DNA from: Solirubrobacterales bacterium
GTDB taxonomy: Bacteria > Bacillota > Syntrophomonadia > Syntrophomonadales > DTU052
Assembly: GCA_050258755.1 (NCBI GenBank)
Contig: JBLMZI010000009.1
Coordinates: forward strand, 6,006 to 70,005
DNA: 64,000 bases
Direction of reading: 5' to 3'
The position numbers and the translations under genes were made by a program. The notes under the pieces were generated by a model, which ran no database searches, had not been told where the DNA came from, and worked only from the letters and a program-made list of their open reading frames with translations. Positions 47,804-52,956 of this stretch are shown piece by piece (within the stretch, counting starts at the first letter, position 1; every line of letters starts with the position of its first letter).

Positions 47804-49732
47804 CTAGTGACGGGCTCCTTCGGCATACATGCTTTCAATGGTTTCCTTCCAGTTTTTCTGGATAACCCGTTTCTTGGTCTTCTGGGTCGGTGTCAGCTCG
47901 TCGGTTTCTTCGGTGAAACGCCGCGGGATGATCGCGTAGGCTTTCACCACCTCGAATTCCTCCAGCTGACTGTTGGCCTGGGCCACGTCGGCCGCGACCA
48001 GTTCCTGCAGCAGCGGAATCTGAACAAAATCATCCCCGACTTCGACACACATCGGCGCACCCGTCGCGTATGAATACTTGACCTTGCTCTTGTCATACGG
48101 AACATTCTGCTTGTCGAAAAGCTCGATGAAATAATTGAAGTCCGGCACCAGCAAGGCGCTCATGTAATTGCGCTCGTCTCCGACCGGGAAAACCTGCTCG
48201 ACAACCGCACTGGTCGCAAACAGATTCTCGATCTTGGCCGGCGCGACGTTCTTTCCGGTATACAGGCAGATAATCGCCTTCTTCCGGTCGACAATCCGGT
48301 AATAGCCATCCACATCCATTTCCACGATGTCGCCGGTCTTGAACCAGCCATCTTCGGTAAAAGATTCGGCCGTTTCCTCGGGTTTATTCAGGTATTCCTT
48401 GAACACTCCCGCGCCGCTGATTTCATACTCGCCATCCGGTGCCATGCGGCCCACGCTGCCATTGGCCGGCGGCCCCACATAGCCTGGCTTGCAGGCGGTG
48501 ATCGGGTTCAGGTTGCAGGCATTAAACGATTCGGTCGAACCAAAGCCCTCCAGTACCGGGAAGCCCAGTACATAGAAGAAGCGAAGCAAGTCAGGTGAAA
48601 TCCCCGCCGAGGCCGAAAACGCGAACCGGAACCGGTTCCCGAACAAAGCCCTAACTTTGGCGAACAGTTTGTCGGCGATCGCGTATTTGAATTTCAGGAC
48701 CGGCGGCAGGACCGTGCGCACGTCGAAATTGGGCGACATGTTGACCCGGCCGAGCTTGTCGGTCTTGTACTTTAACACCTCATACCCGACCTTTAACGCC
48801 CAGTCGAACATTTTCTTCTTCATCGGGTTGTCGGCCATCTGCTTGTTCAGGGTAATGTAAATCTTCTCGTACAGCCGCGGCACGCAGTTGAACCAGGTCG
48901 GATTGTATTTCTGCATATCCGCCAAAATGGTGGACGGGTTGTCTGCGTATGCAATCGTGGCACCCTGCCAAATCGCCATCCACTGGCAGGAACCGCGGTC
49001 AAAGATGTGCGACAGCGGCAGAAACGAGAGCGTTAGGTCGTTTTCATCCACCAGCATCCCAAACGGTTTGAAATAGTCATAGACGCCGCGCATTCGCTCA
49101 GAGGCATTCTTATGGCTCAGGACAACCCCTTTTCCCTGTCCGGTGGTTCCGGAAGTGTATAGTATGGTCGCCCAGTCCTCCAGCTTGATGGCTTTCCAGC
49201 GCTTCTCATAAACTTCGGCGTGGTCTTTCATATAAGCCCGGCCCATTTCCATCAGTTGGGTCAGACCGATGATCCGCTCATCTTTGCTTTCGTATTGAAT
49301 ATCGAGCATGATGACCTTCTGCACCGTCGGCATTTTATCCAGCCCGGGCTTGATCCGGGCGAGGATCTGCTCGTTCCCGATTAACAGGTAACGGGATTCG
49401 GAATCGTTCACAATATAGTCGACCTCGTGCAGAGAAAGTGTGGGATAAATCGTAACCAGCACAGCACCGCAGTCCAGAGTCGCACAATCGGCCTGCGTCC
49501 AATACGGGCTGCTCGGCGACATAATCGCGACCCGCTCCTTTGGCTCAATCCCAAGCGACAGCAGTCCGCCGGCGATCGCTTCCACCCGTTCCCGCATCTG
49601 ACTCCAGGTGAACTGGCCGCCGCCATCACCATGGTACAGTTCCGGATTGAACATCTGCGCGATCCGATCCGGAAACTGGTTGGCCGTGTGATTGAATGCC
49701 TCACACATCGTCGGGAAGTCTTTGACTTGCAT
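47804..49732 (-). CDS. AMP-forming acyl-CoA synthetase (long-chain-fatty-acid-CoA ligase-like)
   Basis: 642 aa. ILYTSGTTGQGKGV (AMP-binding core), GWFKTGD and YRIVDRKK are present. Confidence 0.85.
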   Translation of the reverse strand: MQVKDFPTMCEAFNHTANQFPDRIAQMFNPELYHGDGGGQFTWSQMRERVEAIAGGLLSLGIEPKERVAIMSPSSPYWTQADCATLDCGAVLVTIYPTLSLHEVDYIVNDSESRYLLIGNEQILARIKPGLDKMPTVQKVIMLDIQYESKDERIIGLTQLMEMGRAYMKDHAEVYEKRWKAIKLEDWATILYTSGTTGQGKGVVLSHKNASERMRGVYDYFKPFGMLVDENDLTLSFLPLSHIFDRGSCQWMAIWQGATIAYADNPSTILADMQKYNPTWFNCVPRLYEKIYITLNKQMADNPMKKKMFDWALKVGYEVLKYKTDKLGRVNMSPNFDVRTVLPPVLKFKYAIADKLFAKVRALFGNRFRFAFSASAGISPDLLRFFYVLGFPVLEGFGSTESFNACNLNPITACKPGYVGPPANGSVGRMAPDGEYEISGAGVFKEYLNKPEETAESFTEDGWFKTGDIVEMDVDGYYRIVDRKKAIICLYTGKNVAPAKIENLFATSAVVEQVFPVGDERNYMSALLVPDFNYFIELFDKQNVPYDKSKVKYSYATGAPMCVEVGDDFVQIPLLQELVAADVAQANSQLEEFEVVKAYAIIPRRFTEETDELTPTQKTKKRVIQKNWKETIESMYAEGARH

Positions 49733-50123
49733 TGGTGTTTACCCTCCTTGTCCTTCGCTTAACCTTCCAAGCCTTAGGCTGATATCCCCGTTTCGACATA
49801 CTCAAACCCGGAAGTTTCAAAACCTGATTCGATCCTTCCGGTTATTTATCAAAGAATTCTAACAGTTCCACTACTATAAATTTCGACTTCGAAAGACCGA
49901 AATCCTTTTTTGCCAAACCAGGCCAGCTCGGGCAAAACAAAGCTGGTTTTCGCCCCAATTCAGGCATTTATAAGCCTTTTCCGCAAAGTAATCCACAAAA
50001 AAAATTTTTTTCTTCGGAATATCCGCGGCATAATAGCTTGGCTTTCGGCAGACCGGGCGGTCAGTTTTATTGTGGTGAAACGTTATCGGCCGTAATGCTT
50101 TAGGGCTAATCCGTTCGAGGATG

Positions 50124-50184
50124 CTGGCGGGACGGTGGGGCGTGGCCCGCTCAGGACTCCAGCCTGCCCCACCGTCCCAGCCAG
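50124..50184. other. long GC-rich inverted repeat (18-19 bp arms, 24-nt loop)
   Basis: ctggcgggacggtggggc (50124-50141) pairs with gccccaccgtcccagccag (50166-50184) with one bulged base. There is no adjacent U-run. It lies in a 530-nt intergenic region. Confidence 0.6.
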
Positions 50185-50207
50185 ATAGCTTTATCTACCC
50201 GGATCAT

Positions 50208-50238
50208 GAGAAAAAGACCGGGCTTTAACCCGGTCTTT
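50208..50238 (-). terminator. intrinsic terminator after the HK / REC-RelE-like operon
   Basis: In the minus sense, aaagaccggg-ttaaag-cccggtcttt is followed by ttctcat. Confidence 0.75.
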
Positions 50239-50265: not shown

Positions 50266-51027
50266 TCACACTTTGTGGGTGTGGTTGAAATCGATCCATT
50301 TGATCAGCGGTTTTTCATCCTTGCGGTACTGGACGAATACGCGTCCTTTGTGGGAGAAACGGTACTCCCAAACGTTTTCATCCTTCATGTGCCGGTAGAT
50401 CTTCGCATGCATGCTCTCGGTCGGTTTCATCCGCCAATCGATAGTTTTCAAGACCTTGAGCACCCGCTCGTCCATCCGGCTGTCGATCAGTGTGGCCAGA
50501 GCGCCGGTTGTGAATTCCACATCGGAGAAAACGCGTTCAACCGCCTTTTTGATGTCCGTGTCCAATTTGCCATCAACCATGGTTTCCACCATTTCGGCAT
50601 ACTCGGCCAGGTCATCGATCTGGCTCAAAAGCCCCGTCCAGGCTTCCTTTTTGTGCAATGCAGAGCGAATATGGATGATGAGGCTGTTTTCCGAGACCGG
50701 TTTGGGCAGGTAATCGATATGGTAGACCGTCGCTTCTCCGATCAGATCCGGATCGTTCTCCGCGGTCATCAATAAGACCGGGATCGACGGCGCATATTCT
50801 CTGATCTTCGGAAGGGCTTCAATGCCGCTTTCGCCCCCTTCGAAATGGACGTCCAGCAAGAGGACGTCAAGCCCATACGGCTCGTCATAAAGATAATCCT
50901 TTAAACTTGAGGTGTCGTAAAAATGCTCGATTTTCGCATTGGGAAAAGCTTTGGCCGCAAGGCGGTCCAGCCCGTCATGAACATAATGTTCGTCGTCCGC
51001 AACCCCGATGATGACTTTTTCCCCCAC
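50266..51027 (-). CDS. response regulator: receiver domain fused to a RelE/ParE-toxin-like C-terminal domain
   Basis: 253 aa. REC residues: D11-D12, D59 (LLLDVHF), T88 (LLMTAEN), K109 (YLPKP). The C-terminal ~90 aa, VEFTTGALATLIDSRMDERVLKVLKTIDWRMKP..KIYRHMKDENVWEYRFSHKGRVFVQYRKDEKPLIKWIDFNHTHKV, follows the RelE/ParE pattern. The gene starts 2 nt after the upstream kinase gene. Confidence 0.6.
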   Translation of the reverse strand: MGEKVIIGVADDEHYVHDGLDRLAAKAFPNAKIEHFYDTSSLKDYLYDEPYGLDVLLLDVHFEGGESGIEALPKIREYAPSIPVLLMTAENDPDLIGEATVYHIDYLPKPVSENSLIIHIRSALHKKEAWTGLLSQIDDLAEYAEMVETMVDGKLDTDIKKAVERVFSDVEFTTGALATLIDSRMDERVLKVLKTIDWRMKPTESMHAKIYRHMKDENVWEYRFSHKGRVFVQYRKDEKPLIKWIDFNHTHKV

Positions 51028-51029
51028 GC

Positions 51030-52265
51030 TTATCCCCCCCTTACGATCGGCAGCACAATCGTGGTGCGTGCGCCGGTGAGCCCGTCTTCGGTATCATAGT
51101 TGGCGGCTTGAATCCGCCCCCCCATTAATTGGATATAAAACGCCACCCACATGGTGCCTTCCCCTATACGGCCCGGACGGTTCGGATCTGAACTCCGGAC
51201 CGGGTTGACGTACATCTCGTACAGGATATCACGGGGAAACCCCCCGCCGTTATCCGAAATCTCAATTATGAGTTCCGCGGCGTCTCTGGATGCGGCAAAG
51301 TCCATCGAGATAATTCCTTGATAGGGCTGTTCCAGTTCGCGCATCAGATCACGCATCTGCGCGATGGCACGGGCCGAGTTCGTAATAATGTTGTACAGGA
51401 CTTCGTTATAAAACTGGCGGACGTTTAATTCGAGACACAAATGCGATCCGGAGAGTACCTCAGGCAGGTCGCTATACAGAAATTCATACGCCCGCGACCG
51501 GGTGACAGATGGCGGAAGCTCGTCCAGCAGCGCCTGATGAAACCTGGCAATCGGCATGACCTCGTCAACTGCCCCGGTGACCTCGCCGAGCTTGGACAAC
51601 TCGTCCAGAATAATCTGTTCAAACGGCTGCACAACCTCAGAATAAACCATCAGAAGAATGTCGTCCTCATCCCGCAATGACAGATCGCTGTCGCGGAACT
51701 GGGCAAAACGGTTTTTTAACCGATGAATGAAGCTTCGGCTGCGGGATTCCCAATTCAACTCCAAATCCTGCAGGTTGTTCCGGCTGGCCGCCACGCTGCG
51801 CTCCACCGAGCGGCGGACCTTGTTGCTCATTGCCACCATGTTGGCCATAGCCAGCTCCTCGCGCAGTAAACGTTCCCGACGGTCAGAAGGCGATTCGATC
51901 CAATAGAGTATGAAAAACAGGATTAGGTTCAGCAACTCAACAGCGTGCTCCCAGTTGTCACGATAGGAAATTAAAAAAAGAATCTCAAAGTTCCACATGA
52001 TGGTGACCAGAACCAGGGTTTTGCGGCCACCGTACAGCCAGGAAAGAAAGATCGCGCCCATGATACCCAGTGTGTAGAAGAGCACGAAGGAACTGACTAC
52101 ACCGCCGATGACCGGCTTGGCCATTAAGGCCCTGAACCCGGGCCAGGTGAACAGTAAAGTCAGAATCACCACGCCAATGAAGGTTCCGGTGATAAAGATT
52201 TGATTATGATAGAGGCTGTCCATCAGCCGTGATATCCATCGTTTGGAAAGGCTCAATCCAATCAC
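51030..52265 (-). CDS. membrane histidine-kinase-like protein (4-5 TM plus atypical H-box plus GHKL ATPase)
   Basis: 411 aa. The candidate H-box FIHRLKNRFAQF resembles the HisKA_2 HRxKN. N-box NIITNSARAI, G1 EISDNGGGFP, G2 GRIGEGTMW. Confidence 0.6.
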   Translation of the reverse strand: MIGLSLSKRWISRLMDSLYHNQIFITGTFIGVVILTLLFTWPGFRALMAKPVIGGVVSSFVLFYTLGIMGAIFLSWLYGGRKTLVLVTIMWNFEILFLISYRDNWEHAVELLNLILFFILYWIESPSDRRERLLREELAMANMVAMSNKVRRSVERSVAASRNNLQDLELNWESRSRSFIHRLKNRFAQFRDSDLSLRDEDDILLMVYSEVVQPFEQIILDELSKLGEVTGAVDEVMPIARFHQALLDELPPSVTRSRAYEFLYSDLPEVLSGSHLCLELNVRQFYNEVLYNIITNSARAIAQMRDLMRELEQPYQGIISMDFAASRDAAELIIEISDNGGGFPRDILYEMYVNPVRSSDPNRPGRIGEGTMWVAFYIQLMGGRIQAANYDTEDGLTGARTTIVLPIVRGG

Positions 52266-52380: not shown

Positions 52381-52956
52381 CTACATATCAAGCTGTTTCT
52401 TCAATGAAGCAAGTTCCTTCCGAAACGTGCCTTTGATCTCTTTTTGATACTTGACTTTCAGTGCAGCGTCCGGTGTATGGGATGAATCATAACAGAAATT
52501 GTACAGTCGAGCGCTCGCATGTTGATACAAACCCCTGACCTGCTGGTATTGCGCTTCCTTTTTCTCACTGGCTGTCAGCGAGAACTCGGTTAAGGAATCG
52601 GTTTCCCGGTTCAAGGGCTCCATCTCATTCTGGATAGTTTGAAGGTCTTCGACAAACCGGTTTACATCAATTTTCCCGGATTCCCATTGGCTATAAGATT
52701 CGTCCACACGGTCGGCGTACGATTCCAACTGGGATGTCCAGCGCATGTATGTCCCGCGAAATGGATCAAGCCCCTTAACAACCTTGACGGTCGGTTCATT
52801 CTGCTGGGCCGGTTCCGAAGTGCTCGGTCCGGGCGTGTATTGGTTTCCGGACGGAGCGGGGTTGGTATTTTTCTTGGTGCATCCAACCGCTAAAACAGCA
52901 ATCAGCGTCAATACGATGAACAGGATGGACAGTTTTTTCTGCATCTTTACTTGCAT
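52381..52956 (-). CDS. lipoprotein, helical, unknown function
   Basis: Track ORF 52381..53070. The start is probably ATG 52954-52956 or 52942-52944. The signal plus lipobox is LTLIAVLAVGC. The mature part is helical and Q/E/K-rich. Confidence 0.55.
   Translation of the reverse strand: MQVKMQKKLSILFIVLTLIAVLAVGCTKKNTNPAPSGNQYTPGPSTSEPAQQNEPTVKVVKGLDPFRGTYMRWTSQLESYADRVDESYSQWESGKIDVNRFVEDLQTIQNEMEPLNRETDSLTEFSLTASEKKEAQYQQVRGLYQHASARLYNFCYDSSHTPDAALKVKYQKEIKGTFRKELASLKKQLDM

Follow-up and report, generated by a model that had tools for sequence, protein, structure and literature searches.

Response regulators are usually seen as transcription factors or second-messenger enzymes, and toxins that are fused to, or regulated in cis by, another part of their own polypeptide include CapRel(SJ46) and EzeT. 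The locus analysed here encodes a sensor histidine kinase and a response regulator whose C-terminal domain is predicted to have the fold of the RelE/ParE toxins. It lies at positions 50266-52265 of a 64,000-nt stretch of DNA from a metagenome-assembled genome that NCBI labels 'Solirubrobacterales bacterium' (GenBank assembly GCA_050258755.1, contig JBLMZI010000009.1, positions 6,006 to 70,005 of the forward strand; the whole stretch is referred to as the window). An earlier note, made from the sequence of the window alone, had proposed that the regulator is a signal-gated toxin-fold effector that works without a separate antitoxin. Two described systems, Cami1 and Detocs, and the known families of fused toxins provide the closest comparisons.

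Cami1 (Mogila et al. 2023, summarised in PMC11229360) is a CARF-RelE protein that is activated by cyclic tetra-adenylate (cA4) and cleaves A-site mRNA. Cami1 and the window regulator share an N-terminal sensor, a C-terminal RelE-fold effector and the lack of an antitoxin, the effector of Cami1 being switched on allosterically. They differ in that the window regulator has a phospho-accepting receiver and a partner histidine kinase, while Cami1 has a cA4-binding CARF domain. Further, no sequence similarity could be detected between the output domain of the window regulator and the RelE portion of the CARF_RelE profiles, the window has no CRISPR context, and the window protein falls outside CARF_RelE as a class. 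Detocs (bioRxiv 10.1101/2023.01.24.525353) consists of the kinase DtcA, the buffer receiver DtcB and the receiver-effector DtcC, and requires phosphotransfer. The likeness lies in the association of a histidine kinase with a regulator in which a cell-damaging effector replaces the DNA-binding domain; the effector domains of Detocs are, moreover, modular. However, the effectors listed for Detocs are PNP ATP nucleosidase, REase, TOPRIM and transmembrane (TM) domains, with no RelE among them, and the Detocs kinase is cytoplasmic and contains TPR repeats, whereas the window kinase has four TM helices and no TPR repeats. A standalone DtcB-like buffer receiver was found in none of the loci examined, and the locus does not classify as Detocs.

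Multidomain toxins of the BECR fold have been surveyed by Gerdes (2025; PMC11980606), starting from Pfam families and explicitly setting aside multidomain proteins without an identifiable antitoxin. Receiver or two-component fusions go unmentioned in its text and in the supplements searched; since it was built from Pfam families, the survey could not have caught the family described here. The fused and cis-regulated toxins it covers resemble the window regulator in that the toxin domain is checked by another part of the same polypeptide, and differ from it in that the toxin is partnered by a domain recognisable as an antitoxin or by a TM segment. Searches of the literature on REC-RelE proteins, response-regulator censuses and toxin-antitoxin systems with a receiver yielded no description of such a protein, although earlier mention elsewhere is possible; this agrees with the earlier note, whose author model knew of no regulator family with this output. 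The combination of a receiver with a RelE-fold domain appears to be undescribed, and its logic joins two known ideas, that of a sensor-fused RelE (Cami1) and that of a two-component pair in which the regulator carries a toxic effector (Detocs). A RelE-fold regulator would tie a phosphorelay directly to translation shut-down, which would make it a new class of two-component output, and would give the RelE/ParE superfamily a new, antitoxin-free mode of control. Since Pfam, NCBIfam and PADLOC do not see this family, current annotation and defence-finder pipelines call its members merely 'response regulator'.

Fold, conserved residues and family of the output domain

The response regulator gene (50266-51027, minus strand) starts at a GTG and encodes 253 aa arranged as receiver, helical linker and RelE-fold domain. 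The latter, a predicted RelE/YoeB-fold effector domain, comprises the C-terminal residues 155-253 (50269-50565, minus strand), with its core starting at F167, and has the consensus IFPDIEF...A...L....DERV.RVLK.IDWK..P..GM.VK.F......N.WEYRFS..GRIFVQYR...KPLI..ID..H. It was modelled with AlphaFold2, template-free, using a 13-sequence alignment as input. The best model had a mean predicted local distance difference test score (pLDDT) of 87.2 and a predicted template modelling score (pTM) of 0.80, and the five models agreed with one another (pLDDT 81-87). The predicted order of elements is a helix, a short strand, two helices and four strands, and an independent model of the full-length protein agrees with it. 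A Foldseek search covering 350,542 PDB chains returned essentially only RelE/ParE-superfamily toxins among the top ~35 matches (TM-score 0.55-0.73, probability 0.96-1.0). These included YoeB from S. aureus, E. coli, S. pneumoniae and A. tumefaciens, RelK from M. tuberculosis (TM-score up to 0.73), YafQ from E. coli and V. cholerae, and HP0894 and HP0892 from H. pylori. ParE and HigB ranked after the YoeB/RelK/YafQ/HP0894 group, YoeB, RelK and YafQ lying above ParE both in E-value and in TM-score. The modelling thus confirms a RelE/ParE-superfamily (BECR) fold as the predicted structure of the output domain and bears out the earlier reading of the final ~90 aa as RelE/ParE-like in layout.

The assignment rests on the fold and not on the sequence, since the toxin profiles and a profile-profile comparison with YoeB were negative. 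The check proposed with the earlier note, a search with the ParE_toxin, RelE, HigB, YoeB and YafQ profiles, gave no match, and phmmer and profile searches of the PDB sequences returned chance matches only (alphaRep, GID2). A 51-sequence profile of the domain compared by hhalign with the single E. coli YoeB and RelE sequences gave no significant result either. Within the RelE/ParE fold, the domain forms a new sequence family that lies outside the existing Pfam toxin families; the superfamily was recognised at the level of the fold and not at that of the sequence. Scans with Pfam and NCBIfam agreed with the claim that the regulator contains no helix-turn-helix or other known output domain. The features shared with YoeB, RelK, YafQ and RelE are the structural similarity, the order of secondary-structure elements, a basic character, and a conserved Arg and a C-terminal His in the register of R65 and H83 of YoeB. 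In contrast to these toxins, the domain is fused to signalling modules and has neither an antitoxin gene nor a sequence-profile match; compared with YoeB-type toxins, it has an extra N-terminal helix (residues 157-166) and lacks an equivalent of E46.

Conservation, scored over 51 diverse domain sequences, was highest for R229 (98%), S225 (94%), H249 (92%) and Y222 (90%), followed by E221 (88%), R223 (84%), K239 and D246 (78% each); P240 was also among the conserved residues. The segment W220-E-Y-R-F-S-x-x-G-R229 could be aligned without gaps to W56-S-R-R-I-T-E-E-H-R65 of YoeB, so that R229 falls on R65; hhalign gave the same register, without significance. When LIKWIDFNH249 was aligned by eye with LLIAACRYH83 of YoeB, H249 fell on H83 (the YoeB sequence was checked against 2a6q). 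Kamada and Hanaoka are said to have assigned, in 2005, catalytic roles to E46, R65, H83 and Y84 of YoeB. We conjecture that E221, which would share a strand face with R223 and S225, may substitute for E46. The domain is basic in 96% of its members, with a mean net charge of +4.7 (that of RelE is +7), as expected of a toxin that binds RNA or the ribosome. Taken as a set of sequence features, this would speak for a RelE/YoeB-type RNase rather than for a gyrase inhibitor like ParE. The earlier note had left the target as either mRNA or gyrase; RNA cleavage is retained, and gyrase has become the less likely of the two, given that YoeB, RelK and YafQ outrank ParE and that a Glu/Arg/Arg/His set is conserved.

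The distribution of the domain was determined by an exhaustive search of 1.84 billion representative proteins with a HMMER profile of the domain (E<=1e-3). It was found in 46 proteins, at the C-terminus in every one, under generic database names ('response regulator', 'YesN/AraC family', 'hypothetical'). A Pfam scan of 38 further representatives identified fusions to a receiver in at least 20. In P0037 and P0038 (and, by sequence similarity, P0047) the domain follows a HAD-hydrolase-like domain and a long coiled coil; in P0048 it is joined to ankyrin repeats, in P0045 to a TM/coiled-coil protein, and in P0043 to a CARF domain (Cas_APE2256, E 8.5e-24). P0016 is a receiver-helical-repeat protein of 686 aa, and P0018 shows a weak PUA-like match. 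P0024 (L009:451-870, 139 aa) is a standalone domain with only a short helical N-terminal extension: in-frame stops lie upstream, a receiver is absent from every frame, and no small or partner open reading frame (ORF) is adjacent. Its gene and a nearby NtrC-type regulator/kinase pair are convergent. A contig search with a single protein gave one receiver-only match, in Butyrivibrio, and nothing else. The occurrence of the domain behind CARF, HAD, ankyrin and TM/coiled-coil modules, together with the precedents of Cami1 and Detocs, strengthens the idea of a signal-gated toxin-fold effector. As to the HAD fusions P0037, P0038 and P0047, which are metagenomic, their coiled coil is of ~190 aa and their HAD motif I reads 'CDVEGT'; since HAD enzymes and receivers both use phospho-aspartate, these fusions may represent a second version of the switch controlled by phospho-Asp.

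The CARF fusions allow a direct comparison with Cami1. The N-terminal 250 residues of P0043 matched PDB 8phb/8phj (E 3e-30), which we take to be Cami1 structures, the PDB name being only 'CRISPR-associated protein, APE2256 family'. P0043 also matched the PADLOC CARF_RelE / CARF7 profiles (E 2.7e-53), through its N-terminal part, which places its CARF domain in the Cami1/CARF7 clade. In all, seven CARF clusters carry the domain (P0043 and P0176-P0181), and the distant CARF relatives P0231 and P0235 match the CARF_RelE profiles over nearly their full length. The CARF_RelE match of P0043 extends to residue 342; as sequence proof of a Cami1-type RelE it was rejected, since the C-terminus of P0043 and that of the window regulator, each taken alone, gave no match to the CARF_RelE profiles. 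The argument is thus positional and not one of homology: the domain occupies the slot that is held in Cami1 by the RelE nuclease. The closest CARF relatives (P0182-P0225) bear another, unrelated but conserved C-terminal domain of ~110 aa, with the consensus HHG...NSC.NQP.S...ICIVT.I.SD.GYSFL..TTAR...EN..IA.IL.RKYF. No Pfam match was obtained for it in the two proteins scanned (P0199 and P0186), and it may be an uncharacterised ancillary effector module of type III CRISPR systems.

Receiver, linker and partner kinase

The receiver (REC) domain of the window regulator spans residues 9-120 (50668-51003, minus strand) and matched Pfam Response_reg with an E-value of 8.3e-12, above the gathering score. 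D59 is at the phospho-acceptor position, and D11/D12, T88, Y106 and K109 are the other key residues of a receiver. Aligning 13 full-length homologs (32-100% identity) showed D11, D12, D59, Y106, K109 and P110 to be invariant and T88 nearly so. The full-length AlphaFold2 model had a pLDDT of ~88-95 over the receiver. The regulator is a member of the CheY-like receiver superfamily. The Response_reg match and the invariant pocket residues indicate an intact receiver, as the earlier note had read from D11/D12, D59, T88 and K109, and one that is therefore presumably phosphorylatable.

A charged helical linker (residues 121-154; 50566-50667, minus strand) extends receiver helix alpha5. In the full-length model, the helix runs from residue 113 to 148, with low confidence at 142-153. 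Among the homologs, 39-98 residues separate the KP motif from the invariant Phe, with modes at 58, 64 and 69; a strict heptad quantisation of linker lengths was considered and rejected on the measured lengths. The 40 residues preceding the domain have a net charge of -5 in the window regulator and are acidic in 66% of the domain family. Such an acidic stretch was not found in the HAD, CARF or TM fusions.

The earlier note had proposed that the receiver and the acidic linker act together as a cis-antitoxin. The acidic character holds for about two-thirds of the members, but fails in the fusions to HAD, CARF and TM modules, and the pTM of the full-length model is 0.54. A cis-antitoxin role is possible but weakly supported. 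The textbook model for the idea is CheB, the receiver of which inhibits an enzymatic output until it is phosphorylated. CheB resembles the window regulator in having a receiver and an enzymatic output on one chain, and differs in that the fold and the chemistry of its output are unrelated. Autoinhibition of the CheB type would be a possible fit; the full-length model gave no evidence of a receiver that occludes the effector.

The partner gene encodes a sensor histidine kinase (51030-52265, minus strand) of 411 aa if read from the GTG at 52265. Its start is ambiguous, the other candidates being a TTG at 52256 and an ATG at 52223; the latter gives 397 aa and is the one used by gene callers. A Kyte-Doolittle scan revealed a membrane module (51891-52205, minus strand) of ~4 TM helices, which are linked by very short loops and lack an extracytoplasmic domain, all within the N-terminal 125 residues of the kinase; the earlier note had counted 4-5 TM helices. 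A W-x-x-NFE motif is kept across the partner kinases. The candidate H-box, FIHRLKNRF (H181; 51705-51731, minus strand), is of the HisKA_2/HWE-like type H-[RD]-x-[KR]-N. Its His, and the Asn four residues on, are invariant in all five partner kinases, where the segment S-F-I-H-R-L-K-N-R-F contains either HRLKN or HDLKN. None of the HisKA models of Pfam matched the kinase. The GHKL ATPase domain (51045-51410, minus strand) matched Pfam HATPase_c at residues 286-407 (E 5.4e-7), and its N box NIITNSARAI (NxxxNS), G1 box DNGGGF and G2 box GEGT are conserved in the five partner kinases, in support of the H-box and the GHKL boxes first read from the window. Because the ~4 predicted TM helices are joined by minimal loops, the kinase resembles an intramembrane-sensing kinase; the envelope signal proposed in the earlier note is a putative one, deduced from a sensor made of TM helices only.

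A kinase of this kind adjoins the regulator in five distinct loci: that of the window (L001), L002/L003, L004/L005, L006 and L007. In L004/L005 the two genes stand in the opposite order and the kinase, at 570 aa, is longer. The adjacency is kept amid otherwise different neighbourhoods, which indicates a cognate pair, as had been claimed; adjacency and boxes together provide good evidence that kinase and regulator would work as a two-component system. The claim that no separate antitoxin is present also held. Among the ORFs of 30-130 aa that lie up to 700 nt from the pair, not one was conserved in the five loci, and none of the small ORFs near it matched a Pfam or antitoxin family. The pair thus lacks the adjacent small antitoxin gene that defines a type II toxin-antitoxin system.

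Proposed mechanism and competing explanations

The account of the locus that we consider moderately likely, drawn by analogy with described toxins, is that of a phosphorylation-gated RNase, probably ribosome-dependent, that would arrest translation; the output of the two-gene phosphorelay would thus be a nuclease-type toxin fold instead of transcription. The kinase, with four TM helices and no periplasmic domain, would sense a membrane-associated or intramembrane cue and autophosphorylate on H181. The phosphoryl group would then pass to D59 of the regulator, a transfer for which the residues and the gene pairing are in place. Phosphorylation of the receiver, probably through dimerisation relayed along the helical linker, would toggle the C-terminal domain between inertness and activity. 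Once active, the domain would cleave RNA, probably A-site mRNA as RelE, YoeB, YafQ and Cami1 do, by means of a catalytic set proposed to comprise E221, R223, R229 and H249, and the outcome would be a fast and reversible arrest of translation. An antitoxin gene would not be needed, as control would sit in the same polypeptide. The role of such an arrest could be either abortive-infection-type defence or stress-induced growth arrest.

Several observations weigh against an RNase gated in this way or against its use in defence. No model of Pfam, NCBIfam or PADLOC, toxin families included, matched the C-terminal domain of any of the 13 members at E<=10. When the 51-sequence profile was set against an alignment of YoeB in hhalign, the result was not significant (P ~0.06); that YoeB profile was shallow, its homolog search having given sequences of >82% identity only, and it stayed so after diverse sequences derived from the PDB were added. 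The general base of YoeB, E46, has no counterpart, the aligned position being hydrophobic. The standalone protein P0024, which lacks a partner, suggests that the bare domain may be weakly toxic or non-toxic. Confidence in the predicted arrangement of the domains is low (full-length pTM 0.54, as given above), so that the phosphate may either activate or inhibit. Lastly, the kinase and the regulator matched no PADLOC defence model, and the pair of the window lies among ordinary signalling genes (PAS/GGDEF/HD-GYP) and not in a defence island.

As regards role, abortive infection of the Detocs type, in which the kinase detects infection (for example, a membrane perturbation by a phage) and the effector stops translation, is compatible with a phosphorylation-gated RNase; we regard this anti-phage role as possible, though on balance doubtful. 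It has the precedent of Detocs, and in L002/L003 the neighbours of the pair include HEPN_AbiU2, a DEAD helicase of 1423 aa and uncharacterised large proteins. In L004, two YopX prophage-type genes lie beside the pair; the domain is also used by a CARF sensor of the type III CRISPR style; and its distribution is rare and patchy, in neighbourhoods that differ between loci. However, neither protein is matched by PADLOC, no locus contains a DtcB-like buffer receiver, and the neighbours in the window and in L007 are genes for c-di-GMP/PAS signalling, an EamA transporter and a lipoprotein. These same facts (PAS/GGDEF/HD-GYP, CHASE4, EamA and lipoprotein neighbours, no PADLOC match, no buffer receiver) would fit a physiological brake on translation under membrane stress, which is the other possible role.

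The activity itself has also been considered in other terms. The domain might be a binding module rather than a nuclease, which, when phosphorylated, docks on the ribosome, DNA gyrase or another protein and acts by sequestration or inhibition. The superfamily does contain non-nucleolytic gyrase inhibitors, ParE proteins being among the fold matches (7r5a, 5czf, 8c24), the position of the YoeB general base is not conserved, and a standalone P0024 without antitoxin would be tolerable if the domain were non-toxic. Yet the RNases YoeB, RelK and YafQ outrank ParE in both measures, the near-invariant Arg/Arg/His/Glu/Ser residues on the strands that bear the catalytic residues in YoeB are hard to account for in a binding module, and the CARF fusion carries the domain in the effector slot of the Cami1 nuclease. 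This makes a pure binding function unlikely. That a shallow alignment has produced a spurious fold, the C-terminus being an unrelated small alpha/beta domain of unknown function (for example, one for protein interaction that is specific to this family of regulators), is highly improbable, since the five models agree, the full-length model has the same topology, the top Foldseek matches all fall in one superfamily with probabilities of 0.96-1.0, and the W..R.[ST]...R motif is in register with that of YoeB.

Beyond the phosphorylation-gated RNase of the window, a broader proposal can be made, to which we give slightly less than even credence. The domain would be an unrecognised RelE/BECR family serving as a portable, antitoxin-free kill-or-arrest switch coupled to no fewer than five types of sensor (REC, HAD, CARF, ankyrin and TM/coiled-coil); in the REC form, phosphorylation would directly gate the cleavage of mRNA on the ribosome. 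If true, it would define a post-transcriptional class of response regulators, and the pair would be a new defensive two-component system or a housekeeping brake on translation under membrane stress. Being a two-gene system of ~2 kb with clear point mutants (H181, D59, R229 and H249), it offers a directly testable hypothesis.

Gene layout and surroundings of the pair

The coordinates given for the two genes by the earlier note, and both ORFs, proved correct against the ORF list, and a gene call identical to that of the regulator is present on the public contig (L001, equivalent to the window). The stop codon of the kinase gene and the GTG of the regulator gene are separated by 2 nt, the spacing first noted, and a Shine-Dalgarno site, AAGGGGGGGA, lies upstream of this GTG. 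Some 28 nt 3' of the regulator stop codon is a hairpin followed by a T-run, similar to an intrinsic terminator (50209-50238, minus strand; AAAGACCGGG-ttaaag-CCCGGTCTTTTT). It was read by direct inspection of the sequence at 50238-50209, the pattern scanner having no such entry, and corresponds to the terminator that had been ascribed to the pair. Upstream of the pair is a gene for a lipoprotein-like protein of 191 aa (52381-52956, minus strand), with a signal peptide containing LAVGC; both this ORF and its own terminator, found by the scanner at 52354-52333, had been anticipated. The protein matched no family of Pfam or NCBIfam. A homolog (39% identity) occurs only in L007, the closest relative locus, and not in L002, L004 or L006. 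The lipoprotein was accordingly rejected as a core third component, being common to the window and L007 only, and the gene is probably a lineage-specific neighbour.

Between the terminator of the regulator gene and the downstream AMP-binding (acyl-CoA synthetase-like) gene (47804-49732) lies an unusually long non-coding stretch of ~475 nt (49733-50208). It has no Rfam match and no convincing ORF; an A/T-rich tract, GAAGAAAAAAATTTTTTTTGTGG, and inverted repeats rich in GC occur in it. Over the whole window, neither the Rfam scan nor the tRNA scan gave a match.

In other loci the surroundings differ. In L002 (L002:6981-8795 and neighbours), the pair is set amid a 1423-aa DEAD/Helicase_C protein, a 282-aa coiled-coil protein, an HEPN_AbiU2 protein, a 689-aa unknown protein and an LRAT-family protein. 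A 604-aa coiled-coil/TM protein of the same locus gave a weak match to PADLOC JukA (E 3e-4); its C-terminus had seemed RelE-like by eye, which was rejected when the domain profile gave no match. The whole has the look of a defence island. Several members have Metallophos (calcineurin-like phosphoesterase) genes nearby (L007:6285-7730, L001:16203-17669 and L011:1378-2789), and two of these genes directly follow the CARF fusion. A partnership with the domain was rejected in favour of coincidence, as the 481/488-aa membrane-anchored and the 228/231-aa proteins have no BLAST similarity to one another.

In the window and in L007, the genes around the pair code for PAS/GGDEF/HD-GYP and CHASE4 proteins, an EamA transporter and lipoproteins. 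The region from ~40000 to 60700 of the window is rich in large multi-PAS proteins, among them CHASE4-PAS-HisKA kinases of 881 and 993 aa and PAS-GGDEF-HD-GYP proteins of 596 and >1116 aa. Signalling by cyclic di-GMP (c-di-GMP) and by phosphorelay is clearly a heavy investment of this organism.

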